Shown here in pieces: positions 10,756 through 37,131 of a stretch of 64,000 bases of DNA. The translations under genes were made by a program, and so were the position numbers. Position 1 is the first letter of the stretch; each line of letters starts with the position of its first letter. The stretch comes from an uncultured Candidatus Saccharibacteria bacterium. Its GTDB lineage: Bacteria; Patescibacteriota; Minisyncoccia; Phycocordibacterales; UBA6065. The stretch spans positions 64,153 through 128,152 of the forward strand of contig CAYJCZ010000003.1 of NCBI GenBank assembly GCA_964368835.1, given 5' to 3'. The notes below the pieces were generated by a model. That model searched no databases, was not told where the DNA came from, and saw only the letters and a list, made by a program, of their open reading frames with translations.

Positions 10756-10829
10756 TGCCGGATCGTCTAATGGTAGGACATGGGCCTTTGAAGCCTAGAA
10801 TCTTGGTTCGATTCCAAGTCCGGCAACCA
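10756..10829 (+). tRNA. tRNA-Gln (anticodon UUG)
   Basis: Cloverleaf folded by hand. Acceptor stem tgccgga/tccggca, anticodon loop cuUUGaa, T-loop gttcgattc, CCA encoded. Confidence 0.85.
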
Positions 10830-10847
10830 AGTTGAGGTAGTCTCAAG

Positions 10848-10876
10848 TCGCGTTGATACAACGTTATTTTAAGTGT
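10848..10876 (+). terminator. rho-independent terminator after tRNA-Gln
   Basis: Stem cgttgatacaacg followed by ttatttt. Confidence 0.5.
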
Positions 10877-10945
10877 GCATAGAGCGATGGGATTTGGAAT
10901 CGAACTAACGACAAAGATTAGCAATAAAAATGAATAGAGGAAATT

Positions 10946-10979
10946 CAGACACAATTTTTATTGGTATACTTTAAATATG
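10946..10979 (+). promoter_or_regulatory. extended -10 promoter placed for leaderless translation of the HD-domain gene
   Basis: tttttattgGTATACTttaaatATG: an extended TGnTATACT -10 ends 6 nt before the ATG. A near-identical copy lies at 21228-21258. Confidence 0.55.
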
Positions 10980-11537
10980 AAAATTATAAATTTACTCTCT
11001 TATGCTCAAGAGTTCGCAACCAAGGCCCATCAGCCGATATTTAGAAAAACAGTTTCAGGAGCAAAAATACCTCATATCATCCACATACAAGAGGTTGCTG
11101 ATTTGGTTTACGCTTCAGGCGGTACTGAAATAGAAGTTATTGCCGCATGGCTTCATGACACCGTAGAAGATACAGCAATAACAATGCAAGATATAGAAAC
11201 AGAATTTGGGAAAGAGATAGTGGAAATTGTTCACGGTCTTACAGATCTTGATGAAATAAAAAATCTACCTACAACAGAGCGAAAAAGTAAACAGGCCCAT
11301 CGTGTTCGCACTGAAAGTCTAAGTGTTCGTCGAATAAAGCTCGCCGACCAAACTTCGAATGTTAAATTTATTGCTAATGATCCTGCTGAAACATGGACCA
11401 ATGAAGGATGTAAGGCTTATATAGAAGGCGCAAGGCTTATTGCAGAAGAATGTAGAGGTATAAGCCCCTTATTAGAAAAATTATTTGATGAGGCATACCA
11501 AAATGCTGTTAAGCGATTTGGCTCTGTAAAAAAATAA
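10977..11537 (+). CDS. HD-domain phosphohydrolase (HD_4 / ppGpp-hydrolase-like)
   Basis: 186 aa with H...HD...D metal-binding residues (IIHIQEVADL...AAWLHDTVEDT). Confidence 0.8.
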   Translation: MKIINLLSYAQEFATKAHQPIFRKTVSGAKIPHIIHIQEVADLVYASGGTEIEVIAAWLHDTVEDTAITMQDIETEFGKEIVEIVHGLTDLDEIKNLPTTERKSKQAHRVRTESLSVRRIKLADQTSNVKFIANDPAETWTNEGCKAYIEGARLIAEECRGISPLLEKLFDEAYQNAVKRFGSVKK

Positions 11538-11544
11538 GTCACAT

Positions 11545-13011
11545 ATGTTGATAGATAAATACTTACAAAAAGATGACTCTGACAACTGGAATCTTATTCC
11601 TCCTGTATCTCTAGAATTACTTCGAAACATAAACTGTCATAAATTTGTTCTTTTTGTGATAGGCGCTATTTCTCGTGACGAATTACTTACAGACCCAAAG
11701 ACACAGAAAGCAAATGATCCAACCATAGACTTTACCTTTGGTAAAAAAGCTTTAGCTATTTCACAAAAAGAATTCACATCTATCTCTAATGTTGAAAATC
11801 TTCTTAATGTTGCAAACAAGGAATGTCAGGGAGGAAAAGCTTATGTAGGTCAGATATTAGATGCTAAAACAGGAGAACTCGCACACTCATTTATAGTTGA
11901 GAAAAACTCAGACAGAAAATTTGTTTGCTTTGAGAAAACAGGCTTTAAGCACTATCCTTTCAACGTTCATGGTTTAGAATCACTTCTCGATTTTGTTAAT
12001 GAGAAAGGTGAAAAGTCATATCAAGATCAAAAATGGAGGTTTGTGGAATTAAACACTTACCCAGAAGAAAAAATCTTTGTAGCTATTCACAGAATATTTC
12101 CACAAGCCACGATTAGTTCGGTGCTGAAATTCTCAAAAGGTTTGGCAAGTAACGTATACAAAGTTGAAATACGAGACCCAAGCAAGATTCTTGCTGTTAA
12201 ATTCTTCCCAAAAAAGATTGAACTGAGAGTTGAAAAAAGCTCACGAATCTCAAGTTACGTAAAAGAAAATGGCCTACCTTCGCCTCAAATCTACGAACTG
12301 ATAAAGGGAGATAGCGAGGGTTCTGTTGTTATGGATTGTTTGCTTGGCGAAGTCGCTTCCGAGGTATGGGAAACAGCATCTGTGGAGAACCGACAGATGA
12401 TCCTGGTTAATTCTGGAAAGATGTTGAAGATGATTCATGATCTAAAAATTCCTTCGTTTTGGATCCATCAAAAACATGAAGTTGCCTCCCCTGAAGAATG
12501 GGTTGAATGGACAAGGGTGCGAATTCAAAAGTATCTAGCGGCTGCGCAAGAGAATTTAGACAAAGAAATTATAGATTTCCTTAGAGCAAAATTTGCTAGA
12601 TTGCAGGATCTCTACAAGGCACACCCCGAGTTCCGCTTTGTTCCGCTTCACTGGGATTATCACTTTTCGAATATCAATATTGATGGGCACTTTGAGATAA
12701 GTGGTGTATTCGATTTTGATAACGCTATGAAAGGCCACGATATGGCAGACCTCGGGCAAACTTTTTACTGGCTCGTGACCCAGCAAAAGATATCCAAGGT
12801 GGAGATGTCTGAAAAATTCTTTACAGGCTACGGAGAATTGTCGTCACTCGATCGCGAGTTCGTATATCTTCACTTTCTCCTTTTCCTTGCTGGTGTAACA
12901 AGATCGACATGGCCGAAAGAAAATCTAAAGTGGCTAAACGAGCTACATGTGGGAGTATTAAAAGAATGTCTTAAAGGAGGATATTGTATACATACACCTG
13001 CTATACTTTAG
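11545..13011 (+). CDS. aminoglycoside/choline-kinase-like phosphotransferase (APH fold) with an N-terminal domain of unknown function
   Basis: 488 aa. The C-terminal half has the APH catalytic loop HWDYHFSNINID (HxDxxxxN) and a DFD metal-binding motif. The ~190 aa N-terminal domain is unassigned. Confidence 0.75.
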   Translation: MLIDKYLQKDDSDNWNLIPPVSLELLRNINCHKFVLFVIGAISRDELLTDPKTQKANDPTIDFTFGKKALAISQKEFTSISNVENLLNVANKECQGGKAYVGQILDAKTGELAHSFIVEKNSDRKFVCFEKTGFKHYPFNVHGLESLLDFVNEKGEKSYQDQKWRFVELNTYPEEKIFVAIHRIFPQATISSVLKFSKGLASNVYKVEIRDPSKILAVKFFPKKIELRVEKSSRISSYVKENGLPSPQIYELIKGDSEGSVVMDCLLGEVASEVWETASVENRQMILVNSGKMLKMIHDLKIPSFWIHQKHEVASPEEWVEWTRVRIQKYLAAAQENLDKEIIDFLRAKFARLQDLYKAHPEFRFVPLHWDYHFSNINIDGHFEISGVFDFDNAMKGHDMADLGQTFYWLVTQQKISKVEMSEKFFTGYGELSSLDREFVYLHFLLFLAGVTRSTWPKENLKWLNELHVGVLKECLKGGYCIHTPAIL

Positions 13012-13013
13012 AA

Positions 13014-13538
13014 ATGCCAGAGTTTAATTTTCACATCCTCCATCAAGACCTTTTTCCTAGCAGATCAACAGAACAATCCTTTACCTTTTCCAATCGTCCC
13101 ACGGTCAAAGTTGTTCTTAGGGATAGTGATAATAAAATATGTTTAACTTCTAAAAAAGGAAGCGGTTTTTATTTTCTTCCTGGGGGTGGTATAGAAAATA
13201 CTGAGGATCCGATAGAAGCATTAAAACGTGAATGTCTCGAGGAGGCTGGTTGCCATATTGAAGTAAAATCTAAAATTGGAACTATCATTGAACACCGAGA
13301 CGAAGCGAAAGAAAAAAGGATTGTATCTTGTTATATAGGAGATGTACTTGGTGAGAAGATATCTCCAACTTTGGCTGTAGGTGATGAAGAAGGTTTTGAT
13401 GTAATTTGGATATCAAGAGAAGAAGCCCTAAGGCTTTTGAAGAAACAGCTATCCTTAATTTCAGAGCAAACCATTAATTTCTATAATAGAAAATTTAATA
13501 CGACGCGTGATTTAAATATTTTGGGTAGTTTAGATTAA
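13014..13538 (+). CDS. NUDIX hydrolase
   Basis: Nudix box GGGIENTEDPIEALKRECLEEAG. Start taken at the ATG at 13014, directly after the upstream stop. The listed ORF start at 12984 would overlap. Confidence 0.75.
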   Translation: MPEFNFHILHQDLFPSRSTEQSFTFSNRPTVKVVLRDSDNKICLTSKKGSGFYFLPGGGIENTEDPIEALKRECLEEAGCHIEVKSKIGTIIEHRDEAKEKRIVSCYIGDVLGEKISPTLAVGDEEGFDVIWISREEALRLLKKQLSLISEQTINFYNRKFNTTRDLNILGSLD

Positions 13539-13665
13539 TACTCACTCCAATCTCTAACAGACTAGTCATAGTTACAAATAATCTATTAAAGTATTGATCA
13601 GAGTCTATTTTACAATGATTTATTGATAGGGATGATTTTTTGTTATTTTAGGTTATAATTCAAAT

Positions 13666-14415
13666 ATGTTAGAAAAATACCTCCAAGACATCGGATTTAC
13701 CGACAAAGAAGCAAAAGTCTATTTAACCCTACTTCAGGTTGATAATTCGTCGGTACTTGATCTTGCAAAGAAAACCAAGATAAAACGTCCCACAGTGTAT
13801 GTGGTACTTGAAACTCTTGCCAAAAAAGGCTTAGTAAGTGAATCAACTATAGGTAAAAAGGTTCATTATCATGCTGAATCACCTGAGCGACTTGCTACAT
13901 ATGTAGAAAGACAAAAAGTCATGCTTGATGACCAGGCCCGACAACTCAAAGATGTCATCCCCCAGATCAAGAGTATTCAGCGAGAAACTGGTGAAAAGCC
14001 AACTGTACAGTACTTCGAAGGAAAAGAAGGTATCAACAGCATGAACGAATCTCTTTATTATGACGAAGAAGAAGGTGGAACCGCCTATCTTGTATACTCG
14101 CGAGATCTGCTCGATAAGGTATTTCCACCCGAGGAGCGTAATAAGTTTAGAAATTCTCGTCTAAAGAAAAATATTAAGAGCAGAGTGCTCTATAACTATT
14201 CTCAAGGGGTCATTCCGTCTGATGAAACTGGTGAAAGGATAAAGATTGATGAAGTTCAGTACCCGTTTAGTTGTGACATAACTATTTATAAAGACAGGGT
14301 TCGTATCTCAATTTTAGGTAAAAAACTCTCGGGCATCTTTATTAAAAGCCAAGAATTCGCTGACACCCTAAAAAACCTATTCTCAGTTGCTTTTGATTCT
14401 CGTAAAAACAAATAG
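13666..14415 (+). CDS. TrmB-family transcriptional regulator
   Basis: 249 aa. The N-terminal wHTH (FTDKEAKVYLTLLQ...LDLAKKTKIKRPTVYVVLETLAKKGLV) matches the TrmB family. Confidence 0.8.
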   Translation: MLEKYLQDIGFTDKEAKVYLTLLQVDNSSVLDLAKKTKIKRPTVYVVLETLAKKGLVSESTIGKKVHYHAESPERLATYVERQKVMLDDQARQLKDVIPQIKSIQRETGEKPTVQYFEGKEGINSMNESLYYDEEEGGTAYLVYSRDLLDKVFPPEERNKFRNSRLKKNIKSRVLYNYSQGVIPSDETGERIKIDEVQYPFSCDITIYKDRVRISILGKKLSGIFIKSQEFADTLKNLFSVAFDSRKNK

Positions 14416-14794
14416 CCCCAATCACACTGGATTGGGGCTACCCTAGAAGAGGACAATTCGTTTAGTTTTTACGCTGACGAACGGTGTACTCTACTTGGAT
14501 GATTTGATTGATCTGCTCCACTTCGGAGAAGATTCAACAATATTGCTTTGAAGGAACAACTGATGATGTGAAGGTTTAGTCGCCCATGGTGGGTTACTCC
14601 TTTATTTTGAACCAACTTTACTGAACACTCGGCTTTTGGAGACTCGACGAAGTTTGGCAAGATGCCGCTTCCTGGTGGCTATGGGCTCACCAGGAAGCGG
14701 AACCCGCTTTACCTTAGTCGCTCATAGCGCCTCCTTTTTCAAGTGTTACCAATGGCAATTTTTTAAGGAATCAAATGATTACGCCATCAGTTCT
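14416..14794 (-). ncRNA. candidate minus-strand small RNA or leader unit (promoter to terminator, ~375 nt)
   Basis: Minus-strand promoter: TTGACA (plus coordinates 14830-14825), 17 nt, TAGACT (14806-14801). The transcript carries a 13 bp GC hairpin (14663-14705) flanked by two perfect-SD mini-ORFs, AAAGGAGG-ATGAGCGACTAA and AAAGGAG-ATGGGCGACTAA. It ends at the 14418-14440 hairpin. No ORF longer than 3 codons. Confidence 0.35.
14418..14440. terminator. hairpin terminator shared by trmB (+) and the convergent minus-strand unit
   Basis: ccccaatcacactggattgggg. Confidence 0.45.
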
Positions 14795-15069
14795 TTACCT
14801 AGTCTAGCAAATTTAAATCTAAATGTCAAGCTTTTTTGTCTTTTAGCTTTAATACCTATCTATACGCCAGTTTTAAGCCTATCTAGTAAGGAAATTTGAT
14901 AATTTCATATCTGTATTTATTTTTGACAGAAAAAACTTATTAGAGAATATTTAAAATATAAAGCAAGTTTATTTTGTAAATGTCAGGTGTATCATTTTTT
15001 ATTGTAGGTTATTAAACCATTATTTATAGGCATATAATAGGGTATTAAAATAGAATCTGTCAGATATAC

Positions 15070-15098
15070 TTGACAGAAATAGGGTTTAAGTATATACT
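15070..15098 (+). promoter_or_regulatory. strong sigma70-type promoter driving the hammerhead-ribozyme operon
   Basis: TTGACA (15070-15075), exactly 17 nt, TATACT (15093-15098). Confidence 0.65.
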
Positions 15099-15127
15099 AC
15101 TCAACAGATTATTCTTTGAGTCAAATT

Positions 15128-15222
15128 TGGTAACTTCTTAATGCCCCTGATACACGACCCGTCTCCCAGAAAATAACGAGACTGCTTGGCGAGTATCACC
15201 CGGAGGCATTAAGAAGTTACCA
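15128..15222 (+). ncRNA. structured 5' leader closed by a perfect 18 bp helix, function unknown
   Basis: tggtaacttcttaatgcc ... ggcattaagaagttacca pair perfectly over 18 bp. Inner helices ctgatac/gtatcac and cgtctc/gagacg. Starts about 25 nt after the predicted transcription start. Confidence 0.4.
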
Positions 15223-15474
15223 AAACCCCAACCCCAAATATAGAAACCATGGACTACAAAGTCTATCCTGACGGCACCGTTGAGGTGATCCGTCGCTATT
15301 AATCCTCCAGGAGGGATTCGTTCTACGTCGTAATGTGGTTTGAGCAAAATCCGGCTCTGTCAAAATAGGAAAAAAGTTTTGTCCCCATCTTTCTTAGAAA
15401 AGACGGCGAGCCATAAGGGAGCAGAACCTTTCGGGAGACAACCCGCGTAAAAACAACCAAGTCATCGACTTGGT

Positions 15475-15526
15475 TTCCGTCCCGAGATGTTTTCTCGGCT
15501 GATGAGTCCAAAAGGACGAAACGGAA
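15475..15526 (+). ncRNA. hammerhead ribozyme 1 (type III)
   Basis: Stem III ttccgt/acggaa, cleavage triplet GUC, stem I ccgaga(uguuu)ucucgg, core CUGAUGAG, stem II guccaaaaggac, then CGAAAC. Confidence 0.85.
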
Positions 15527-15606
15527 TGCTCTTTGAGAAATGTTGGTCTATACCTCCTCGCACTTAATTTTGAGTTCGAAGAGGTGTAGGCCATTCGTGT
15601 GGCCAT
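15527..15606 (+). repeat. module A' (diverged copy of the 84 nt post-hammerhead structured module)
   Basis: Aligns with 15931-16014. Stem positions differ with compensatory changes, and a C-A mismatch is kept at the same position in both hairpins. Confidence 0.6.
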
Positions 15607-15875
15607 CTAACCCTCCGCGGTTTTCTCCTCGACATACAGAGGGGTCCGTATGGAGTACCGCTAGATTCAGCTTTCATACCCGAAGGGTAATGACCGACTG
15701 AATAGTGTGGAAAAGAAACCCATGTCGGGTTTCATGAGGGAGACGTCCTAAAATTAAAGAATACATAAAAAATCTTTAATTACACGAATTATTTAGTTTC
15801 AAGCAAGGTTTAACTTAAAACCTGCCCGAAGGTTGTAGCAATTGAGTCTTCATGGACTCTTGCTCCCTTCGGATC

Positions 15876-15932
15876 CTGTCTCAGCCCAAGGCTGACTGAC
15901 GAGTCTTCCGAGCGATCGGCAAGACGAAACAG
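15876..15932 (+). ncRNA. hammerhead ribozyme 2 (type III)
   Basis: GUC site, stem I ucagcc(caa)ggcuga, core CUGACGAG, extended stem II with a bulged C capped by a GCGA GNRA tetraloop, CGAAAC, stem III cugu/acag. Confidence 0.85.
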
Positions 15933-16014
15933 AATGTTCTTTAAAAATCTGGCCTGTACCATCTTGAATTTAAGTTCTTGAGTTCAAAATGGTGTAGGTC
16001 AGTCGTGTGGCCAT
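15931..16014 (+). repeat. module A, copy 1 (84 nt conserved structured element after the hammerhead)
   Basis: 83 of 84 nt identical to 16828-16911. It folds into a long imperfect hairpin with closing helix ccugUacc/ggUGuagg. Confidence 0.8.
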
Positions 16015-16237
16015 TTCACCCAGAATTTCCTGCTGGACGATAGAGCAGGAAAGAATGACCCCAAGAGGGCAAAGTGATTCTGTCCAAGTTTCACTATAAG
16101 GGGCCAGTAACCCTAAGCGAAAAGCACACGAATATTTAGTTGGTTTAGAAGAAACCAACCAGGAGAGAGGTAGAACTCGACGGAATCCAAGAGGATTCTA
16201 TTAGTCGGCTACCAACCTCTCCTGCAAGTGTCTCCGT

Positions 16238-16285
16238 CTCAGACGGACTGATGAGCTTTCCGATTTGTTCGGCAAAGCGAAACAC
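16238..16285 (+). ncRNA. hammerhead ribozyme 3 (type III)
   Basis: gugu-C site, stem I uccguc(uca)gacgga, CUGAUGAG, stem II gcuuuccgauuuguucggcaaagc with a bulged C, CGAAAC, stem III gugu/acac. Confidence 0.85.
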
Positions 16286-16302
16286 AGATGTTCTTTGAAT
16301 AA

Positions 16303-16359
16303 GTTGGTTTCGGAAGCGAGTGCATAAATGTGCTATGTGCGCTCACTTCCGAAACCAAC
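16303..16359 (+). repeat. module B hairpin, copy 1 (~21 bp stem) between a hammerhead and the cargo ORF
   Basis: gttggtttcggaagcgagtgc ... gcgctcacttccgaaaccaac. Homologous hairpins at 17219 and 18434 show compensatory base-pair changes. Confidence 0.75.
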
Positions 16360-16414
16360 ACAATCGATAATCTCCCATTCGGGATGACACGGTTCACTGT
16401 GGTGAGGAATTCTT

Positions 16415-16732
16415 ATGGCTAACGCAACCAAATCCTCGAAGGTCTTAGTGACCTACACGCCGCATCGTCTCGGCCACTCGCTCGCCCAGAAGTTATGGGA
16501 GCGGGGCTTGTCGAAGGATCGGCAAGTTGGCCTCGACAGCGAGGCACATGTCATCTTGTATGACGAGGTAAAGGAAGCCGCTGAAGGCTTCGCGGAGGAT
16601 CCTCGGGTTCTCCGGATTGTGGTAGCGACGGAAATGCCGCCCCACCTTCCCAAGGGGATATTCTGGATCAAACCAGATGTCCAGGCTTTCACTAGCCTTA
16701 TCCGGACGTTAAATCCGGGAAGTGAAATGTAA
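16415..16732 (+). CDS. cargo ORF 1: GC-rich hypothetical protein (105 aa)
   Basis: GAGGAA SD 7 nt upstream of the ATG. GC is well above the window average. No recognisable domain. Confidence 0.55.
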   Translation: MANATKSSKVLVTYTPHRLGHSLAQKLWERGLSKDRQVGLDSEAHVILYDEVKEAAEGFAEDPRVLRIVVATEMPPHLPKGIFWIKPDVQAFTSLIRTLNPGSEM

Positions 16733-16771
16733 TGAGATGGGTACATATAAACCCCATCCACCCTGCAATAA

Positions 16772-16829
16772 AACGCAGGTTCTGTCCGAAGATGTATATC
16801 TTCGCTGATGAGCTCTAAAGAGCGAAACA
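16772..16829 (+). ncRNA. hammerhead ribozyme 4 (type III)
   Basis: uucugu-C site, stem I cgaagau(guau)aucuucg, CUGAUGAG, stem II gcucuaaagagc, CGAAAC, stem III uucugu/acagaa. Confidence 0.85.
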
Positions 16830-16911
16830 GAATGTTCTTTAAAAATCTGGCCTGTACCATCTTGAATTTAAGTTCTTGAGTTCAAAATGGTGTAGGCCAG
16901 TCGTGTGGCCA
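16828..16911 (+). repeat. module A, copy 2
   Basis: Near-identical to 15931-16014, with a single t/c difference. Confidence 0.8.
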
Positions 16912-17143
16912 TTCATCGGAGCTTGTGTTGGAACAAGTGCGTGATAAGTGCCGAAGGTAGATATAGACTGCAGTCTATATTTCTACTAAAAGGGTTGTCC
17001 TGATCAGGCAACCTAAGACTCTGGTGTCTCCCACCTAAGTACACACGAATAGTTTGTAGCGGTTTTTAGAAGAGAAACCGCTCCGGAGAAGGTCTGATGT
17101 TTGTTGAATCATGTGATTCCAAATGTCCACCTGTCTCCGGCTA

Positions 17144-17198
17144 GTGTCTCCGTTTTAAACGGACTGACGAGCTTTCCATTTTTGGCAAAGCGAAACAC
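17144..17198 (+). ncRNA. hammerhead ribozyme 5 (type III)
   Basis: gugu-C site, stem I uccguu(uua)aacgga, core CUGACGAG, stem II gcuuuccauuuuuggcaaagc with a bulged C, CGAAAC. Homologous to HHR3. Confidence 0.85.
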
Positions 17199-17218
17199 AG
17201 ATGTTCTTTGAATAAAAA

Positions 17219-17271
17219 GTTGGTTGTGGAAGATAGATCAGAAAATTTCTGGCTTTTCTTCCACAACCAAC
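17219..17271 (+). repeat. module B hairpin, copy 2
   Basis: gttggttgtggaag ... cttccacaaccaac, perfect 14 bp. Differs from copy 1 at covarying positions. Confidence 0.75.
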
Positions 17272-17328
17272 GCAACCGATAAGCTCCCGACAGGGATGAC
17301 ACGGCTCGCAATGGCGCGGAATCACTTC

Positions 17329-18009
17329 ATGAATACGAACAAACTAAATGTCTTGGTTTTTGATGACAGCAAGATTCATCGCGCCGCCGCGCAAGCCCAG
17401 CTCAAGGAGCACAACCTCACGGTCGTAGGCACCTACGATGAGACCCAGGAACTCATCACGCCGAAACTAGATTACAAACGGGCTGAGGGAATCGTCCGAA
17501 AGGAATTCCCGGATTTCAAGCCCTACGATAATGGCGTGAGCAAGGAGCAGAGAGACGCCTATCAGGCCGCGTGGAAGAGGGCCAACCAAGAGGCCACCAC
17601 GTATCCCACATTTGATGTGGTTCTCACCGATCTCCTCGTCCCTGCTTCAAAGCAGGCGCAAGGACCCGATGGATACCAATTCATCGGCCAGGAGATGCCG
17701 GTCGGGGTCTTTATCGCATTGCTTGCGGCAGCCAAGGGGAAAGTGAAACACGTAGCCGTCTTCACCGACAGCGACCATCACTCTCATCCGGCCTCTGCTT
17801 GCTTCGATAGATTCAACGAGGGCGAGGGCAATCCGACGCCGTTTATGGTGAATGGCTGTAAGTTCCTGCTTTCAAACAGCAGGGGCTGGGTCAACCATTT
17901 CGACCCCAACGATCTTGCCAAGGAATTGAAGTATGAAGAATACAAGGGCAGATCGGATACGGTAAGGGCGAAAAACTGGAAGGCCCTTCTTGACTACCTG
18001 CTCACGTAG
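17329..18009 (+). CDS. cargo ORF 2: GC-rich hypothetical protein with a CheY/receiver-like N-terminal segment
   Basis: Start moved to the ATG at 17329, after the conserved leader; the listed 17224 start lies inside the module B hairpin. The motifs NVLVFDDS and DVVLTDLLVP resemble a receiver fold but with atypical spacing. About 55% GC. Confidence 0.55.
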   Translation: MNTNKLNVLVFDDSKIHRAAAQAQLKEHNLTVVGTYDETQELITPKLDYKRAEGIVRKEFPDFKPYDNGVSKEQRDAYQAAWKRANQEATTYPTFDVVLTDLLVPASKQAQGPDGYQFIGQEMPVGVFIALLAAAKGKVKHVAVFTDSDHHSHPASACFDRFNEGEGNPTPFMVNGCKFLLSNSRGWVNHFDPNDLAKELKYEEYKGRSDTVRAKNWKALLDYLLT

Positions 18010-18120
18010 TCGTCGGCGCGGCAACTCCCGGGAGATCCAAGTGGATCGCGATGAACCGGCGGAGATGGAGAAAACCATCTTGGCAACAGAATCAAAACAC
18101 TGGGTCAGAAAAGATCCTGT

Positions 18121-18169
18121 CTGTCCATCGATGTGTATCGATGCTGATGAGCTCTAAAGAGCGAAACAG
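18121..18169 (+). ncRNA. hammerhead ribozyme 6 (type III)
   Basis: cugu-C site, stem I caucgau(gugu)aucgaug, CUGAUGAG, stem II gcucuaaagagc, CGAAAC. Stem III extends to aagauc/gaucuu. Confidence 0.85.
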
Positions 18170-18198
18170 AACGATCTTTAAAACCAAAAAAGGAGAAT

Positions 18199-18306
18199 TA
18201 TGAAAATCAAAATGCCGAACCGCATGGATACTTATCGCGCCGTGCGCAAAGTGCTTCCACCGCCGTCAAAAGCTTTTGCCCCAAGCAAAGGCAGAGGCGG
18301 TTATGA
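18199..18306 (+). CDS. cargo ORF 3: very small basic protein (35 aa) directly after HHR6
   Basis: Strong SD AAAGGAGA 7 nt upstream. Reads MKIKMPNRMDTYRAVRKVLPPPSKAFAPSKGRGGL. A +1 frame continues to 18349, so a longer frameshifted form is possible. Confidence 0.3.
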   Translation, partial: YENQNAEPHGYLSRRAQSASTAVKSFCPKQRQRRL

Positions 18307-18368
18307 CCGCAAGCGCGAGAAACGCGATTCCAGAATGGGGTTCGAATGATTTACATCAATGCTCTTTT

Positions 18369-18417
18369 CTGTTTCGAGATGTGTATCTCGACTGATGAGT
18401 CCTAAAGGACGAAACAG
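18369..18417 (+). ncRNA. hammerhead ribozyme 7 (type III)
   Basis: cugu-U site, stem I ucgagau(gugu)aucucga, CUGAUGAG, stem II guccuaaaggac, CGAAAC. Confidence 0.85.
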
Positions 18418-18433
18418 ATGTTCTTTGAATATA

Positions 18434-18484
18434 TTGGTTTCGGAATAAAGTCCACTCGATGAGCTGACTTTATTCCGAAACCAA
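18434..18484 (+). repeat. module B hairpin, copy 3
   Basis: ttggtttcggaataaagtc ... gactttattccgaaaccaa, perfect 19 bp. Third covarying variant. Confidence 0.75.
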
Positions 18485-18563
18485 AGCCACTGATAAGTCC
18501 CTCTAGTTCCTATTTCATAGGGATAAGAGATGACACAGCTGTGCCAAGGGGAGGAATACCACC

Positions 18564-18869
18564 ATGAAGAAATTCATCCTGTCAGTGTTCGCCCTGTTGG
18601 CCTTCTCCGCGGCTCTGTTCGCCACCGATGACAAGAAGCCCTCCACGCCCTTAGGGTTCAAGGAGGCCGAGATCATCGGCACGGTCAAGGAGATCGTGGT
18701 CGTCAACGCCGATCGTAACCTCCAGTATTGGACGGTGAAGGTCGACGGCAAGGACGCGCCCTACCACCTCTTCACCGACGAAAAGGGCAAAGTCGGCGAG
18801 CGCATCGTCATTTACGTGATGGTGCGGGTAGGCGGCCAAGTGAGCTGGATCAAAGTGAGGCCCCTTTGA
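18564..18869 (+). CDS. cargo ORF 4: GC-rich small secreted protein (101 aa, signal peptide)
   Basis: GGGAGG SD. N-terminal MKKFILSVFALLAFSAALFA signal peptide. High GC. Confidence 0.55.
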   Translation: MKKFILSVFALLAFSAALFATDDKKPSTPLGFKEAEIIGTVKEIVVVNADRNLQYWTVKVDGKDAPYHLFTDEKGKVGERIVIYVMVRVGGQVSWIKVRPL

Positions 18870-19347
18870 TCAGTGAGTTGCGGAACTCAACAAAACCCGC
18901 TCTTGCATCCCGATCGATGCAAGTATATGTAATGTAGCTATTTCATCTGAATCAGATGGAATATCGGTCCCAAGCCCGCGTAAATACAGAGGGTCATTAT
19001 CCAAGCCCAGAAAGAGAGCTCCGCAAGGAGATGGGAAATGCTTGAGCGAATCCTGATCAGGTTTGCCATCGTGTTAGATCCAGCGGAATCTGGACGCGTT
19101 GTCACAACGACGCACGACTGAATCTGCTATTTCCAGCAGATAAGTTGTCGGCATTAAGATTGCCGAAAGTTCATGGCTGAACATTCATTGCTCTTTACAT
19201 CAAAACATCAAAACTTAGGCGCCGGGAGAATCGAGAAAATCTCCCTTGCCTGTCACGACTCGAATCACTCTTGTGTAAATCTAAGACAGTAGGCATCCTG
19301 AAAAGGAAGAAGCCCTACCGAGATTTATAAAGGAGGTTTAGAAGATA

Positions 19348-19380
19348 ATGACGAATGACCGTTCCAATCCTTGCACATAG
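19348..19380 (+). other. micro-ORF (10 aa) behind a perfect Shine-Dalgarno
   Basis: AAAGGAGG followed 8 nt later by ATGACGAATGACCGTTCCAATCCTTGCACATAG (MTNDRSNPCT). Confidence 0.2.
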
Positions 19381-19590
19381 TGCAGGCTACTGATTGATAA
19401 GCCCCGGGAGCATACGGAACGGTAAAAATGTTACGTTTTAAAACGACAATCCTACAACCAGCAAATTGGTTGGGTAACATCAAACATCTCGCCGGAGGGT
19501 TCGCCTAAAAAACGAACCCTCCCTTTATCAGGCTTGCGAATGGTTCGTCGGCCTGTAGAGACCGCTCTTTCACAACATATTAAGGAAATT

Positions 19591-19866
19591 ATGAACCTCA
19601 AGATATTCATTCCCGGAGATAGCCCTGTATCACGGGTGCTCCGTCAGACCTTGGATAAGAAGATCCAAGTTGAAAGTCAGGAAGAAGCGAGCGTGGTGAT
19701 CGCGCTTACTGTGGAGTCTCTGTTTGACCACTACCTGAAGTCAACTCCACCCACACAAGATTTCGTGCTCTTCAGCTTAGAGTACGTGGAAAAGCTTCCA
19801 GCGAGGGTAGTCTGGATCGAGGGAAGCCTCGTCCCGCTCCTTGCGTATCTTCAAACAAAAGTGTAA
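19591..19866 (+). CDS. cargo ORF 5: hypothetical protein (91 aa)
   Basis: AAGGAA SD before the internal ATG at 19591. The listed ORF start at 19534 has no SD. Confidence 0.45.
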   Translation: MNLKIFIPGDSPVSRVLRQTLDKKIQVESQEEASVVIALTVESLFDHYLKSTPPTQDFVLFSLEYVEKLPARVVWIEGSLVPLLAYLQTKV

Positions 19867-19915
19867 AAAACTTCGAGAGACAACTCGTAAAAACCCGAGA
19901 CTAAAGGCTCGGTAT

Positions 19916-19963
19916 CTGTAGCGAAGTGTAACTTCGCCTGATGAGTCCAAAAGGACGAAACAG
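19916..19963 (+). ncRNA. hammerhead ribozyme 8 (type III)
   Basis: cugu-A (GUA) site, stem I gcgaagu(guaa)cuucgc, CUGAUGAG, stem II guccaaaaggac, CGAAAC. Confidence 0.85.
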
Positions 19964-20012
19964 AATGTTCTTTAAATAATTTTTCTTCCCGCACTGTAAA
20001 CCAAATAGAAAA

Positions 20013-20195
20013 ATGAAAACAACTGCAATCATAGTCGGACTCGTGCTAGGCACCTGGGGATTAGTCGGCGGATACTTATTGATCCGTGATCGTCATAACA
20101 GCGTTGCCCCACGAACCATTGGTATCGTGAGTCTCGTTGGCATGATGAGTTCCGCGATCGTCTTGACGCTCGCAATCGCCACCATGGCAGAGTAA
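20013..20195 (+). CDS. cargo ORF 6: small membrane protein (60 aa, two TM segments)
   Basis: Hydrophobic ORF 50 nt after HHR8. Confidence 0.4.
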   Translation: MKTTAIIVGLVLGTWGLVGGYLLIRDRHNSVAPRTIGIVSLVGMMSSAIVLTLAIATMAE

Positions 20196-20228
20196 GACTA
20201 ATCGGTTCTAGGTTATCCTCAAAACCTA

Positions 20229-20277
20229 CTGTTTCGGAATGTGTATTCCGACTGATGAGCTCAAAAGAGCGAAACAG
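20229..20277 (+). ncRNA. hammerhead ribozyme 9 (type III)
   Basis: cugu-U site, stem I ucggaau(gugu)auuccga, CUGAUGAG, stem II gcucaaaagagc, CGAAAC. Followed by a 13 bp hairpin (20300-20347) and then the ORF. Confidence 0.85.
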
Positions 20278-20401
20278 AATGATCTTTAAAAAACTTCAAA
20301 CTTCGTCATAGCAGAAAGCGGCTACTCCTGGCCTCTCCCTGCTATGACGAAACCATTACGGCCAAGTCCTCTAGCGAAAACTAAATCAAGGATATAAACT
20401 C

Positions 20402-21199
20402 ATGAAAACTGAGGCAAAAACCATGACACCCGGCCAAGCTTTCCAGCTTATGGCTGTTATCGCTCAGAAACTCGGTAAAATCGGTCTCGACTTCGATTCG
20501 GCAGAAATGCTCATTGGCAAACCAGACCTTACTCTTAAGCGCTTACGAGCACTTAAGAGTGAAAAGATAGTGAATCCTGCTAATGTGGCCACCAATCGGT
20601 TTACAGTGATCGAAAGTTTGGAAATTGAAAATTTGCCAAACTGCACTTCAATGGATCAGGTTCTCGATTATCTGTTACTCGACAAGCAAATTGAAAAATA
20701 TTTGAAGTCGCCTGAATATGATTCGATGAAATACAATGACCACCATAGCTATTGTGCAAGGGATAAATCCCTTTTCAAAAGCACAACGGTGAATCAGCCA
20801 ATGTATCCTCTTCCTATCTTCAGAGAGGCTCTCGATTACTGTGGGCCAGATAATGGGATTTGGGAACTTCTGTATCGTCGTAAGGCACTTTTTACGATCG
20901 ATGAAGTCTTAGGTTTTCTCTGTGGATTAATAAACACAGGTGAAGATCCATTAGGATTGCTGGAATCGGGTTACAGCACGGTTTGGTTTCCTGTTGTTCT
21001 TCATCGTCCAGGAGAATTCTGGGATATCAAGACCGAAGCCGTTACTCTCGTAAGGATTAGTAAAGGCGAGTTGTTGAAAAAACAACTCACCTGGCATGTC
21101 GGATTTTACGGCGTGCACAATGTGATCTCCATACGAGAAGGGGTCTCTCAAATTGTTTATTTTGCAAATGATCCGCGCATTCGCTCGCGTCAGGAGTAA
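20402..21199 (+). CDS. cargo ORF 7: hypothetical protein (265 aa)
   Basis: AAGGA SD. No recognisable domain. Confidence 0.6.
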   Translation: MKTEAKTMTPGQAFQLMAVIAQKLGKIGLDFDSAEMLIGKPDLTLKRLRALKSEKIVNPANVATNRFTVIESLEIENLPNCTSMDQVLDYLLLDKQIEKYLKSPEYDSMKYNDHHSYCARDKSLFKSTTVNQPMYPLPIFREALDYCGPDNGIWELLYRRKALFTIDEVLGFLCGLINTGEDPLGLLESGYSTVWFPVVLHRPGEFWDIKTEAVTLVRISKGELLKKQLTWHVGFYGVHNVISIREGVSQIVYFANDPRIRSRQE

Positions 21200-21212
21200 A
21201 ATAACCTCGAAA

Positions 21213-21239
21213 CCGTGTCTCACAAACACGGTTTTTTTA
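21213..21239 (+). terminator. rho-independent terminator closing the hammerhead operon
   Basis: aaaccgtgtctcacaaacacggttttttt. Confidence 0.8.
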
Positions 21240-21258
21240 TTGGTATACTTTAGATATG
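21228..21258 (+). promoter_or_regulatory. second copy of the extended -10 leaderless promoter (tttttattgGTATACTttagatATG)
   Basis: Identical at 23 of 24 nt to 10950-10979. Placed immediately before the NUDIX gene ATG. Confidence 0.55.
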
Positions 21259-21702
21259 GATAAGTTACTAAATACTCGAATTCGAGCAGTTGCAATTGTC
21301 ATCAAAGATGACTCTGTTTTGCTTATGCATAGAATTAATAAAGATCGAGGTGAATATTGGACATTCATTGGCGGTGGAGTCGAGGAAGGTGAATCTGTCG
21401 AAGATGCTGTAATACGAGAGTTGTATGAAGAGGCTTCGTTAAAGGCTTCAATAAATAAATTATTTACCATTATTAAAAACGATGGGTCCGCAAGATATCA
21501 CCATACTGCGGAGCATCACTTTTATTTGTGTGACTATATTTCAGGAACACCTAAATTTGGAAATGGGCCAGAGCACATGACGGCTGACAATATCTACGAT
21601 CCTCAGTGGGTAAATATTGATATGTTTAAAAAGTTAAATCTTTACACAGAGGAAGTAAAAAATAAGTTAATTGATTATCTTGAAAATAAAAAAGATAGAT
21701 AA
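21256..21702 (+). CDS. NUDIX hydrolase
   Basis: Nudix box GGGVEEGESVEDAVIRELYEEAS. Confidence 0.8.
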   Translation: MDKLLNTRIRAVAIVIKDDSVLLMHRINKDRGEYWTFIGGGVEEGESVEDAVIRELYEEASLKASINKLFTIIKNDGSARYHHTAEHHFYLCDYISGTPKFGNGPEHMTADNIYDPQWVNIDMFKKLNLYTEEVKNKLIDYLENKKDR

Positions 21703-21705
21703 TGT

Positions 21706-22689
21706 ATGCAAGAGCTTTTAACAAAAATTAATGAGTTATACGGGAAAATAGTTACTAATCCTCAAAAAGTCACAGGAGGATTTTTGAGCGAGAACTATTT
21801 TCTAGAAGAAGGTGATAAGAGATACTTTCTCAAAAAATATAGATTCAATAACGCCAAGAGGATTGAAGAGGTTCACGCATCTAAAAAATACTTTTCTGAC
21901 GGAGGTATTCCCGTAATTCTACCCATTCCTCTTTTAAACGGTAAGACCTATTTTTCTTATAATGAAGGTTATTATGCACTCTTTCCATTTATTGATGGTA
22001 GACAAGTAGATAGGGGTAATATGAACCATGCTGAAATTATTTCCCTCGGTGAGATGTTGGGAAGAATTCATTTACTCGGTAAGGTGGCAAAAGTGGCAAA
22101 TGAAGATCGTTTTAAAATTGAAAATAAAGAAAAGACGTTTAAAAAGATAGAGGATATTCTAATCGAAATACACAATAAAGACACTTTGAGTAATTTTGAT
22201 AAAACAGCTGTTGAAAACATTGAACTCAAGAAACAACTCCTTTTATCTAACACATTAACTTTTGAGAATCTTAATTTACCTTGTGATCATTTAATACATG
22301 GTGACTATCTTGATCATAATGTGTTTTTTGATAATCAGCATAAAGTTTTTGCTGTCTTTGACTTTGAAAAGACGAGCTACTCACCTAGAACATATGAACT
22401 GTTCAGGTCTATGATCTACGGAATGATTAGTGATGATTTTTCAGAAAAAAGCTTGGGTGACGCAAAAATATATCTTGATGCGTATGTCCGTATTTATACT
22501 ATATCAAAAGATGAGATTAAAAGAGGTTTACAGTTATTCCTACTCAAATCTATTCATGGATTTTGGGTTGAAAGTGAACATTATCTAAAAAACAATAACC
22601 GAGTAGATGAATTCTTGTTTAACGATTTAAAGAAGATTAAATACTTATCAAAGAATCTAGAAAAGTTTACTAAATTTCTTACAGGGTAA
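21706..22689 (+). CDS. APH/choline-kinase-like phosphotransferase
   Basis: Catalytic loop LIHGDYLDHNVFFD (HGDxxxxN) and a DFE metal-binding motif. 327 aa. Confidence 0.8.
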   Translation: MQELLTKINELYGKIVTNPQKVTGGFLSENYFLEEGDKRYFLKKYRFNNAKRIEEVHASKKYFSDGGIPVILPIPLLNGKTYFSYNEGYYALFPFIDGRQVDRGNMNHAEIISLGEMLGRIHLLGKVAKVANEDRFKIENKEKTFKKIEDILIEIHNKDTLSNFDKTAVENIELKKQLLLSNTLTFENLNLPCDHLIHGDYLDHNVFFDNQHKVFAVFDFEKTSYSPRTYELFRSMIYGMISDDFSEKSLGDAKIYLDAYVRIYTISKDEIKRGLQLFLLKSIHGFWVESEHYLKNNNRVDEFLFNDLKKIKYLSKNLEKFTKFLTG

Positions 22690-22716: not shown

Positions 22717-24012
22717 CTAGCTGATATCATCTTTAAGAAAAATCTGTTTTTCTTTTAGAGTTATTTTACTTTTCAGACACCCCAACAGCTCCCTCTTTTC
22801 TGAATCATTTCCTTCTCTCAACACAAATTTTGTGTAATTTCGTATATCAATATCACCAACTACGATTTTTTCTTTGATGCCGAGCACCATTCGCTGAAAA
22901 CTTTTGAATCGTTCAACCTCAGTCTTAATCTGATCTTTTATACCTATCTCATCTAGGTCTATTGCATCCATTAATTTCTCAAACTGTTTGATTAGATCTT
23001 CCTCATTGATATATCCGCACTTGCATTTCTTATCCCTGACTTTTGTACATATGTAATAAACATGTCTATTCATAGTACCGTCTCTCAATTTCTTAAATTT
23101 CTCGTCAGCGGTTATCCCTGAACCACACAATCCACAAGTCATTAGTTTGGTAAAGGCGAATTCTTTATTTTCCGTCCTCACAAAAAGACTTTTTACCTGC
23201 TGTTGTGCCAGATCAAACAATTCTTTATTTATTAGAGGAATATGCTTGCCTGTATACCAATTACCGCTCTTCACTGGGTACTCAAAGACTCCGTAGTAAA
23301 AAGGGTTCTGTAGTATTAGGTATACATTTCCTAAAGTCAGACCTTTCTTACCTGTAATGCTCTTAAAATTCAAATCGAATTTCAACCAGTGATATATTTT
23401 GTTACCGCTCCATTTTTCATAAGCAACTTTTTCAAATATTTTTCTAATAACTGGACCTCGTTCGGGATCAACAATCGCCTGACACTTCCTATCCATATGT
23501 CTTTCGTTGAGATACCCCACAGGAGGTTGTCCTGGCCGTAGTCCCATTTCACACCTTGTCCTCAAACCACGCTTCACATTGATACTCTTGTTGTCATTTT
23601 CAAGTTTGGCTTGCGAACAAAGAATCATGAGGAGGAACTTCTCGTTTGGTGAGTTCCTAAATTGTTGTCCGTAGGTTTTGATCTCAATAAGGTGTTTTTG
23701 ATCCATTAAATCAACTACAGATCCTAGATCTCCAGCATTACGACTCAACCTATCGGGTGCCCATGTGAGGATTCCATTAAATTTATCTCCTCTTATATCC
23801 TCTAATATTTCTTTAAATACTGGTCGTTGCCCAGAATCTTTGGCCGAATGAGATTCTCTCCGAATATCAATAACTTCAAGTTGATCACGCTCGGCAATTT
23901 TCAGCATTTCCTTAACCTGTGATTCTATTGATAAGGCTTGTTTCTCGTCTTGCTCAGTACTCTTTCTTGCGTATAGACAATATCGCACCTTGATCGTTGG
24001 AATCACAGCCAT
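22717..24012 (-). CDS. large serine recombinase (resolvase domain, recombinase domain and zinc ribbon)
   Basis: Catalytic region YARKSTEQDEKQALSIESQ; C-terminal CxxC...CxC zinc ribbon. Start set at Met33 (24012). In-frame alternatives at 24045 and 24108. Confidence 0.85.
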   Translation of the reverse strand: MAVIPTIKVRYCLYARKSTEQDEKQALSIESQVKEMLKIAERDQLEVIDIRRESHSAKDSGQRPVFKEILEDIRGDKFNGILTWAPDRLSRNAGDLGSVVDLMDQKHLIEIKTYGQQFRNSPNEKFLLMILCSQAKLENDNKSINVKRGLRTRCEMGLRPGQPPVGYLNERHMDRKCQAIVDPERGPVIRKIFEKVAYEKWSGNKIYHWLKFDLNFKSITGKKGLTLGNVYLILQNPFYYGVFEYPVKSGNWYTGKHIPLINKELFDLAQQQVKSLFVRTENKEFAFTKLMTCGLCGSGITADEKFKKLRDGTMNRHVYYICTKVRDKKCKCGYINEEDLIKQFEKLMDAIDLDEIGIKDQIKTEVERFKSFQRMVLGIKEKIVVGDIDIRNYTKFVLREGNDSEKRELLGCLKSKITLKEKQIFLKDDIS

Positions 24013-24228
24013 TTTGCCTATAAGGGCTGTCGTTTGTGTTTCCATACGACCATTAATGACAGAACCGTTGGTTTTGCTAAGCGAGTGATGTTGGCAACGT
24101 GTAGACAACTATCCTTAGCAAAATAGCTAATCAGCGATACTATGTTGGACTGGTAACGGTTTTGGCGTTATCATAATCCATGACAATTCAATAGGTAAAG
24201 TAGCCTAACCCATCGAGCAATCGGTGGC

Positions 24229-25107
24229 ATGGTGAAAGTTAGTCGATCAAGCATAAAAAACCCGTCATGGGGTTGCTTGATCGCCGTATGGGGAAACCTG
24301 TACGAGGGACTTCGGTTCCTACCCGTGGCGGGCTTTTTGTTCGCCGCACATTACAAGCCGATCAAGCAAAATATGCACATTGTTTTTATCTTACTTTCCT
24401 TTTTGGCATTTCTAGGATTTTTTGCAGGACTCATTAAACCTTCGTGGTTTAAGATGAAATCCCGCAGACAATCATCAGGAGTGTTTGCCGGAACTTTCGT
24501 CCTTCTTATGATCCTTACGATCATCGCTTCTCCGGCAGAAGAAGTGCCTCCATCTGTTGTCGTTCAGTCAACTGCGCCAGCAGTAGCTCAACCTGTCGTA
24601 GCGACGGAGCCAGTTCAGCCGCCAAAGCCAAAAACCCGAGAAGAGCTCATTACGCAAAAGATAGAAGCTTCACTTGGGGCTACGACCAACACAAGCAAAC
24701 CGCGCGTAGTTTCCGTCGAACTCACAGCCTACAAATCATCTGAATTGAGTACTTATGGATATGCCTCGACCAATACCGTCCAAGGCGCATTCATCAAGAC
24801 AAATGCGAGCGAGAATCTCACATCGAATCTCCAGAAGATGACCTTGCATAAAGAAGCGGCAAAAATATTTCAAGACACTTTCTCATCTTTCTCACAGATT
24901 GGTGATGTGATTATTTGGGAAAGACTGCCCGTGAGCGACCAATATGGAAATCAAAAGGATGATACGGCGATTGTATATGCTATGAGCCGATCATTGTATG
25001 ACAAAATTAACTGGGCAAGCTTCTCATACACAACCTTGCCAGATCTCCTGAAGTCAGAGGGTCATACCGATGACCGAAATTCGTATTACGAAGCGATCCG
25101 ATTCTAG
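24229..25107 (+). CDS. membrane-anchored hypothetical protein
   Basis: 292 aa with TM helices near the N-terminus (a possible internal start at 24373), then a Pro/Thr/Val-rich linker and a C-terminal domain. Confidence 0.5.
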   Translation: MVKVSRSSIKNPSWGCLIAVWGNLYEGLRFLPVAGFLFAAHYKPIKQNMHIVFILLSFLAFLGFFAGLIKPSWFKMKSRRQSSGVFAGTFVLLMILTIIASPAEEVPPSVVVQSTAPAVAQPVVATEPVQPPKPKTREELITQKIEASLGATTNTSKPRVVSVELTAYKSSELSTYGYASTNTVQGAFIKTNASENLTSNLQKMTLHKEAAKIFQDTFSSFSQIGDVIIWERLPVSDQYGNQKDDTAIVYAMSRSLYDKINWASFSYTTLPDLLKSEGHTDDRNSYYEAIRF

Positions 25108-36099: not shown

Positions 36100-36148
36100 A
36101 AAGTTCACGCTTGCTTTCAGGTGTGTTTAACAAATAAAAAAGACCTGT

Positions 36149-37123: not shown

Positions 37124-37131
37124 GGTTCCAA

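Follow-up and report, generated by a model that had tools for sequence, protein, structure and literature searches.

Gene content of the region

This work concerns a stretch of 64,000 nucleotides (nt), here called the window, from contig CAYJCZ010000003.1 of an uncultured Candidatus Saccharibacteria bacterium. Two small enzyme modules in this window are headed by almost identical extended -10 promoters lying close in front of the start codon. The left module encodes an HD-type hydrolase, an APH-fold kinase (APH_L) fused to an N-terminal domain, a NUDIX hydrolase (NUDIX_L) and a TrmB-family regulator. The right module encodes a second NUDIX hydrolase (NUDIX_R), which is followed by a second APH-fold kinase (APH_R). 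An earlier description made from the letters of this DNA (the original prediction) had listed these genes, and the domain searches bear it out for both modules, with HD_4 as the HD-type family. An array of ribozymes separates the two modules (Table 1). It is probable, in our judgement, that a leaderless extended -10 promoter, which is standard for the lineage, heads two separate accessory operons in a horizontally acquired variable region, and that these operons carry NUDIX–kinase pairs for salvage.

The promoter repeat

The repeat finder returned a near-identical sequence of 25 nt, TTTTTATTGGTATACTTTA[A/G]ATATG, at 10955-10979 and 21234-21258, with 24 of the 25 bases identical. It had been described as a 24-mer at 10955 and 21233; the repeat is real, but its length is 25 nt and the coordinates were 0-3 nt off. 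The pattern as written at that time has two exact matches in the window, at 10957-10979 and 21236-21258, both on the + strand, and none of 100 shuffles contained a match. Reading of both copies confirmed an extended -10 element that ends 6 nt before the ATG. The likeness of copies 1 and 2 runs up to the ATG and no further. The repeat search added a third copy (TGCTATACTTTAGAAATG), looser than these two and absent from the original prediction. Its extended -10, TGcTATACT, lies at 12999-13007, and the ATG behind it is the start of NUDIX_L in independent gene calls. In all three copies, a TGn stands directly 5' of the TANNNT hexamer, and the spacer between the -10 and the ATG is 6 nt.

Resemblance among promoters of this type was measured over the 25 bases upstream of the ATG, with the start codon excluded, for 59 distinct promoters of the form TGnTANNNT-6-ATG, taken from the window and from foreign loci. 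The pair at 10977 and 21256 shares 21 of 25 bases, which is the top value among 1711 pairs; a typical pair shares about 12, and the best unrelated pairs reach 20 and 19. The window has three copies of the 11-mer TATACTTTARA (0.18 expected), all of them at the starts in the modules, and 625 kb of foreign loci from the Candidate Phyla Radiation (CPR) have one. Extended to TATACTTTARA-W-ATG, it is found nowhere else in the window than in the three promoters. The exact 18-mer promoter was not found in the foreign loci, and the spacer sequence is not conserved at orthologues of the HD-type hydrolase or of APH_R elsewhere. The consensus accounts for most of the identity of the repeat, and a real local excess remains. 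Local copying of a promoter or shared regulation may lie behind this threefold similarity.

A leaderless-type layout across the lineage

The spacing between the -10 element and the start codon was examined for 69 non-overlapping open reading frames (ORFs) called in the window, with all ATGs as the control. A TANNNT hexamer exactly 6 nt before the start is present in 14 of the 69 genes vs 1.7% of all ATGs, and the same spacing with a TGn extension in 8 of the 69 vs 0.4%. No other spacing stands out among these genes. A Shine-Dalgarno (SD)-like tetramer lies upstream of 5 of the 69 genes, which is rarer than in the control (13.5%). The same peak is found in 75 Parcubacteria-type (CPR) loci from other metagenomes and genomes (L005-L010 and L022-L090), where 101 of 540 genes (19%) have the 6-nt spacing, 60 of the 101 with TGn, and SD-like motifs occur at 12.6% of genes. 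It was not seen when eight DPANN archaeal loci were analyzed in the same manner. The nearest orthologue of the left kinase (in L005) starts with TATAAT-N6-ATG, and 10 of 37 operon starts in the APH_R family are of the N6 type. The promoter type had been described in front of the two modules, but it is not special to them: with 14 of 69 genes in the window and 101 of 540 foreign genes it is standard for the lineage.

Bacterial RNA polymerase usually starts transcription about 7 nt downstream of the -10 hexamer, counted from its last base; with 6 nt between the -10 and the ATG, position +1 would coincide with the A of the ATG. The 25-mer would then act as a sigma-70-type extended -10 promoter (TGgTATACT), from which transcription begins at or next to that A. 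Leaderless starts at these promoters are thus a prediction, and it is supported statistically: the leaderless mRNAs proposed originally fit the sharp TANNNT-N6-ATG peak in the window and in the clade, and the scarcity of SD motifs.

Leaderless genes whose -10 or extended -10 element abuts the start codon occur in Actinobacteria (Mycobacterium tuberculosis) and in Deinococcus. For genes of that kind, PMC12641261 cites Cortes et al. 2013. The layout found here resembles theirs in its TANNNT hexamer, often with TGn, at a fixed short distance from the ATG, in the lack of an SD motif and in the large number of genes concerned. It differs in lineage, which here is Parcubacteria/CPR, and in that the leaderless starts are predicted here from sequence spacing. 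A literature search found no description of this promoter-start layout for Parcubacteria or the CPR.

Two other parts of the window touch on translation and promoter type. An ORF within the ribozyme array (18564-18869) has GGGGAGGAATACCACC-ATG at 18546-18563, which is among the few strong SD-like sequences of the window. The low-GC stretch at 36000-40000 (GC content 0.35-0.39), which may be another acquired region, has several N6 leaderless-type promoters (37198, 37588, 40014).

Table 1. Features of the region between the tRNA-Gln gene and the serine recombinase gene (positions in the window)
Feature	Position	Strand	Evidence or remarks
tRNA-Gln (UUG), left border of the variable region	10756..10829	+	ARAGORN; Rfam tRNA 63.9 bits
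61-nt stretch after the tRNA	10826..10886	+	blastn: 77% identity with the sequence directly before the L005 kinase
Inverted, degenerate copy of the tRNA-Gln T-arm	10890..10908	-	60 nt downstream of the tRNA gene
Promoter copy 1	10955..10979	+	T-run; TGg (TG 10962-63); TATACT 10965-70; 6-nt spacer TTAAAT 10971-76; ATG 10977
Small alarmone hydrolase, Mesh1/SAH-like, HD_4, 186 aa (amino acids)	10977..11537	+	Pfam HD_4, TIGR00691, 3nr1
N-terminal domain of the 488-aa fusion protein (11545-13011)	11545..12058	+	Rare family, predicted papain-like Cys-His fold
APH-fold kinase domain (APH_L)	12059..13011	+	Pfam APH 68.3 bits; HWDYHFSN, FDFD, beta-3 Lys
Promoter copy 3, looser	12999..13016	+	Within the 3' end of the left kinase gene, before ATG 13014
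NUDIX hydrolase NUDIX_L, 174 aa	13014..13538	+	Pfam; complete Nudix box; PDB 2azw E 4e-11
Leaderless-type promoter of the TrmB gene	13654..13668	+	TATAAT, 6 nt, ATG; read from sequence
TrmB-family winged helix-turn-helix (HTH) regulator, 249 aa	13666..14415	+	Pfam TrmB 59 bits; PDB 3qph E 7e-4; C-terminal half without family assignment
Likely array promoter	15070..15098	+	TTGACA-17-TATACT (11/12); promoter scan
Ribozyme array, nine hammerhead cores and one twister-P1-like element	15474..20291	+	Rfam at E-value threshold
ORF, 265 aa, last gene before the terminator	20402..21199	+	No family match in Pfam and PHROG scans
Intrinsic-terminator-like hairpin	21209..21235	+	T-tail is the 5' part of promoter copy 2
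Promoter copy 2	21234..21258	+	TGg (TG 21241-42); TATACT 21244-49; 6-nt spacer 21250-55; ATG 21256
NUDIX hydrolase NUDIX_R, MutT-like, 148 aa	21256..21702	+	Pfam 68.6 bits; PDB 2pqv E 2e-12
APH-fold kinase APH_R, 327 aa	21706..22689	+	Pfam APH 82.1 bits; large Patescibacteria family
Large serine recombinase, convergent with APH_R	22717..24108	-	Resolvase, Recombinase and Zn_ribbon_recom domains; CcrB-like 119 bits

Proteins of the left module

The first protein of the left module scores 70.7 bits against Pfam HD_4 (cut-off 27.2) and matches the hydrolase (N-terminal) part of TIGR00691. Human MESH1 (PDB 3nr1) aligns with its residues 9-172 at an E-value of 5e-18. The motif H..HD..ED..D..N is intact (H59-D60, E63-D64, D123, N127). 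By these matches, the protein is a full-length homologue of Mesh1, a small alarmone hydrolase (SAH). The term HD hydrolase used originally gave the right type of gene, but the protein is specifically a homologue of the RelA/SpoT-type Mesh1/SAH group. Like known Mesh1/SAH proteins (PDB 3nr1, 5vxa, 6z3o), it is matched over its full length, has a fitting size and keeps the HD and ED residues. Unlike them, it is encoded by a gene that is co-oriented with a papain-like::kinase fusion; the candidate substrates are (p)ppGpp, (p)ppApp and NADPH. Pfam and NCBIfam scans of the cluster in the window found no RelA_SpoT synthetase domain, the partner in toxSAS-SAH toxin-antitoxin pairs. The SAH family is frequent on long chromosomal contigs of Patescibacteria.

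The N-terminal domain of the fusion protein had been called novel and proposed for profile searches. These searches gave no Pfam match and no PDB profile match for the N-terminal 172 residues, and the domain is indeed both unannotated and rare. Its relatives define a rare Cys-His domain family of 28 clusters among 1.84 billion (1.84e9) protein representatives, and most of them are stand-alone proteins. N30, C31, H114 and W164 are invariant in the family (alignment A1), and an acidic residue is conserved. An AlphaFold (AF2) model of the domain has a predicted local distance difference test (pLDDT) score of 91.3. The top Foldseek matches are all papain-like but weak (E 2.6e-3 or worse; template modelling (TM) score 0.36-0.41), and they comprise a Josephin-type clippase, AvrPphB, staphopain C, Cif and tegument deubiquitinases. 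The domain is therefore predicted to be a divergent papain-like Cys-His domain. It resembles the papain-like hydrolases of clan CA (AvrPphB, Josephin-type clippases, staphopain, Cif) in the invariant Cys followed by His and in the conserved acidic residue; it differs from them in its weak fold match and in the lack of a sequence match in Pfam or the PDB. Among the relatives of the kinase, the fusion of the Cys-His domain to an APH kinase is seen in this organism only. All of the 60-odd relatives of APH_L are stand-alone proteins of about 312 amino acids, which cover just the C-terminal 63% of the fusion.

Two relatives of the Cys-His domain have other contexts. In P0064 (L026, 6001-7335), the domain is fused to a DsbD_2 membrane domain. 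P0071 (L028, 4462-4971) is a stand-alone domain encoded directly upstream of a YfbR-like HD nucleotidase, and it is a second case of the Cys-His domain adjoining an HD phosphohydrolase.

The two NUDIX proteins and the two kinases

Both NUDIX proteins are above the Pfam threshold and are generic MutT-like enzymes. The Nudix box (GX5EX7REUXEEXGU) is complete in NUDIX_L; NUDIX_R has EEAS for EExG, with S in place of the last G. Both kinases exceed the PF01636 cut-off of 23.2, with 68.3 bits for APH_L and 82.1 bits for APH_R. They keep the catalytic HxDxxxxN motif, the metal-binding DF[DE] motif and the beta-3 lysine, and the alignments have invariant K44, H194, D196, N201 and D217 (A4) and K43, H198, D200, N205 and D219 (A2). 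The model of APH_L has a pLDDT of 92.7, and its closest structures are of the APH(3'), APH(2'') and fructosamine-kinase type, at a TM score of about 0.5 and 13-19% identity. A PDB sequence search with APH_L gave no match.

None of the characterized kinase families in NCBIfam reaches its threshold with either protein, as the scores are 16-54 bits and the cut-offs 172.7-550. APH_R scores 54.4 against homoserine kinase (cut-off 271) and 49 against thrB_alt (cut-off 255.9), and APH_L scores 28.5 against APH(3') (cut-off 205) and 17.7 against homoserine kinase (cut-off 271). A firm grouping with the housekeeping homoserine or methylthioribose (MTR) kinases, which had been named as an outcome that would speak against the original prediction, is not found at these scores. 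Assignment to a housekeeping or resistance equivalog (type II homoserine, MTR or APH(3') kinase) is not supported by these sub-cut-off scores. The two proteins are thus like the known APH-fold kinases (APH(3'), APH(2''), fructosamine-3-kinase, YihE/SrkA, type II homoserine kinase) in the Pfam APH match and the catalytic motifs, and unlike them in falling far below every NCBIfam equivalog cut-off.

The APH_R family has more than 340 matches, in Patescibacteria. Apart from CPR bacteria, members of the APH_L family (36-87% identity) turned up only in DPANN archaea (Pacearchaeota, Woesearchaeota, Nanoarchaeia). The DPANN loci with this family are L011-L018, and the Parcubacteria loci are L005-L010.

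Pairing of NUDIX and kinase genes

The only two NUDIX genes of the window each adjoin one of its only two APH genes. Neighbourhood conservation of such pairs in CPR genomes, which had been suggested as a check, was examined in 57 metagenome loci with right-kinase orthologues, whose 73 immediate neighbours were counted. NUDIX is the commonest neighbour family (5 of the 73), and the other 89 families look random. Two members of the APH_R family, P0139 and P0181, are NUDIX-APH fusions. The pairing does recur, but weakly. Since the NUDIX and APH families repeatedly turn up side by side or fused, the two enzymes of each pair probably have a single nucleotide-linked small molecule as their common target. 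The NUDIX enzyme would cut the diphosphate link of this molecule, the kinase would phosphorylate a hydroxyl, and the pair would serve metabolite salvage or house-cleaning in a host-dependent organism. The processing of a nucleotide-derived small molecule by the modules, as originally proposed, is plausible.

Signalling or defence had also been considered. In PADLOC, both NUDIX proteins match the candidate model PDC-S07, NUDIX_R at E 1.8e-15 over most of the model and NUDIX_L at 3.2e-10. We take these matches as similarity within the NUDIX superfamily, not as membership of a system. The only other PADLOC matches were winged-HTH ones, to the TrmB-like protein. A defence role is not borne out by this search, which gave no system membership.

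Genomic setting and possible mobility

The modules have a GC content of 0.31-0.40 vs about 0.43-0.45 in the background. At the left border, a terminator-like hairpin (10850-10864) lies within the 61-nt stretch that follows the tRNA gene. The foreign Parcubacteria locus L005 matches the kinase domain and half of the NUDIX gene over 1227 nt at 87%. The rest of its 20 kb has no other match than this cassette and the 61-nt stretch. L005 lacks the segment 10887-12058, to which promoter copy 1, the SAH gene and the papain-like domain belong. The inverted T-arm copy sits exactly at the left edge of this segment and may have been left behind by a rearrangement that targeted the tRNA.

Orthologues of the left kinase occur in varied settings. 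One lies directly after tRNA-Trp in L006 (9913-10933), one near tRNA-Trp in L007 (9190-10927) and one about 1 kb from tRNA-Glu in L005 (8893-10945), and these varied tRNA neighbours suggest repeated tRNA-adjacent insertion. In L008 and L010, TerS-like and ParB-methylase genes lie within 5-9 kb of the left kinase, without TerL, and L010 has a recombinase too. Around one orthologue of the right kinase are a methylase, a recombinase fragment and a diversity-generating retroelement. No conserved gene neighbourhood was found for the APH_L orthologues. Given these varied settings near tRNAs and recombinases, the genes behave as movable accessory genes of variable regions.

The right flank continues from the serine recombinase through a LOOT RNA, TerL, a TerS-like HTH protein and a ParB-N6/N4 methylase to LexA. 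The phage-derived cluster at 25108-28316 (- strand) comprises TerL (phrog_38, E 7e-73), the TerS-like HTH protein and the ParB-N + N6/N4 DNA methylase; no phage structural genes were found in it. The LOOT RNA is full-length (24202-24320, + strand; RF03000, 73.7 bits vs a gathering score of 46.4). It lies between the start of the recombinase gene and an ORF (24229-25107) whose first codons it overlaps, and this ORF matches PHROGs of unknown function only. In its main text, Weinberg 2017 is silent on the role of the LOOT motif, and a literature search on the motif gave nothing usable.

The ribozyme array between the modules

The nine hammerhead cores of the array lie at 15499-20275 and the twister-P1-like match at 18926-18998, all on the + strand. 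The twister match scores 54.8 bits vs a cut-off of 67.2, and at the Rfam gathering threshold no ribozymes are returned, as the elements of the array score just below the cut-offs. The ORFs inside the array have no Pfam match. The array is GC-rich, unlike the low-GC modules on its flanks. Two repeats within it, 15925-16015 and 16823-16913, are 99% identical, and public assemblies of the same organism break within the array.

Clusters of hammerhead and twister ribozymes reportedly occur near phage-type integrases in bacteria. The present array is like them in that several hammerheads and a twister-like element share one strand near recombinase and terminase genes. It is unlike them in that, across 86 foreign loci, the array has no conserved link to the flanking enzyme genes. 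A hammerhead core was found in none of these 86 loci. The position of the modules on either side of the array was described correctly, but the bracketing is unique to this genome and is therefore no evidence of a functional link between the array and the enzymes. A literature search on hammerheads in Parcubacteria gave nothing usable.

Alternative explanations

The preferred explanation proposes the following arrangement. The left operon would run from the Mesh1/SAH-type pyrophosphohydrolase through the papain-like-domain::APH fusion to NUDIX_L, which has its own promoter copy, and to the TrmB-like regulator with its own TATAAT-N6-ATG promoter. The right operon would run from NUDIX_R to APH_R. 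Both would sit in the variable low-GC stretch that extends from the tRNA-Gln gene to the serine recombinase with its terminase genes, and this stretch was probably acquired horizontally. Several points weigh against this explanation. More than 90% of the kinase orthologues have no NUDIX neighbour, and the NUDIX gene of L005 is truncated. The NUDIX partners, with 25-30% identity, are not orthologues of each other, and for this reason the NUDIX–kinase association appears loose and repeatedly arisen, on modest evidence. Attachment (att) repeats were searched for in the region and none were found, only the inverted T-arm fragment. Inositol_P adjoins SAH in L094 and L095, and Inositol_P or META lies near the kinase in L008 and L009; by this synteny, parts of the left module may be chromosomal. 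The cause of the threefold promoter similarity is one that we infer, and leaderless initiation is deduced from spacing statistics only.

This last point is shared by a competing account in which the transcripts are leadered, the promoters lie further upstream and the AT-rich TGnTATACT boxes have another role, for example, non-SD ribosome loading. Internal genes also lack SD motifs, and some SD-independent initiation must therefore exist in this organism. Such an account is nevertheless improbable, since the exact, TGn-enriched 6-nt peak matches the geometry of a promoter rather than that of a ribosome, a terminator lies directly upstream of copy 2, and the 57-nt gap there has no alternative promoter-like site. 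A small regulon is a better candidate, unlikely as it stands, but the strongest of the alternatives. In it, a factor, most simply the TrmB-like protein, would bind TATACTTTARA or GGTATAC and co-regulate SAH-kinase, NUDIX_L and NUDIX_R-kinase. The restriction of the 11-mer to the three starts, the top rank of the 10977/21256 pair, a regulator gene within the cluster and a spacer that is not conserved at orthologues, and is hence a local feature, all favour it; the absence of an evident dyad symmetry or separate operator, a TrmB promoter without the motif and the overlap of the shared bases with the general AT-rich consensus oppose it. The regulon is compatible with the preferred explanation, to which it would add a regulatory layer with putative TrmB-like binding. 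The modules had also been described as paralogous, and a segmental duplication of one HD/NUDIX/kinase module, with the 25-mer as its surviving trace, would account for the shared superfamilies and for the 24 identical bases. This is the least credible of all the readings and is effectively refuted by the divergence of the proteins. The two kinases match only at the superfamily level (BLASTP E 0.026), the two NUDIX proteins are 25% identical, and the left kinase reaches no more than 11.8 bits with the profile of the right-kinase family. Moreover, each kinase has a large orthologue family of its own, the gene order is reversed (APH-NUDIX on the left, NUDIX-APH on the right), and the promoter likeness ends at the start codon. 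The two operons thus appear to be separate, with superfamilies alone in common.

The remaining alternatives concern mobile elements. Direct repeats 10,279 bp apart, with a recombinase, a tRNA gene and the inverted tRNA fragment nearby, could be read as recombination sites or target-site repeats around a 10.3-kb insertion (10980-21233) that holds the left module and the array. Geometry and register speak against att sites or target-site repeats and make them highly improbable: the repeats do not enclose the recombinase, each of them comprises an entire promoter with a start codon in the same register as in the third copy and in many unrelated genes, and in the comparison with L005 the left copy falls within the extra segment, not at its edge. 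Large serine recombinases are not known to produce long direct repeats. The modules could instead belong to a prophage or satellite, as auxiliary or anti-defence cargo that works with the phage-derived genes and the ribozyme array. The recombinase, TerL, TerS-like and ParB-methylase genes just to the right point in this direction, as do kinase orthologues near a recombinase and/or a DNA methylase (L008, L010, L022), and the HD and NUDIX proteins match PHROG families. However, a PHROGs search with both kinases gave no match, and 2.9 million viral contigs, searched with the single APH_R sequence and with profiles of both families, yielded no member of either kinase family; these genes are thus not typical of phages. 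A scan of these contigs with TerL returned no close relative. Structural phage genes are missing, the SAH family is common on chromosomal contigs, PADLOC gave PDC-S07 alone above generic HTH matches, and the foreign loci carry no hammerhead cores; phage cargo is accordingly a doubtful explanation. A further view is that the promoters, both enzyme modules and the array form one functional unit on an integrative element, with the TrmB-like protein as co-regulator, and we give it very little credence. The nine hammerheads and the twister would release RNA pieces, and the SAH-type HD protein, the two NUDIX proteins and the two kinases would act on their 5'-triphosphate, 5'-OH and 2',3'-cyclic phosphate ends and on nucleotide by-products.

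Significance for the lineage

Taken alone, the finding of two enzyme operons behind similar promoters is a correct and mostly ordinary annotation for this lineage, and it settles no long-standing question. The APH_L kinase family crosses the domain boundary and is common to two groups of ultra-small symbionts. The evidence that NUDIX and APH-fold kinases work together is weak but reproducible, and it points to a salvage or house-cleaning step. About one in five Parcubacteria genes has a -10 box, often extended, exactly 6 nt before the ATG, with scant use of SD motifs. This N6 layout is relevant to the calling of gene starts and to the expression of CPR genes.

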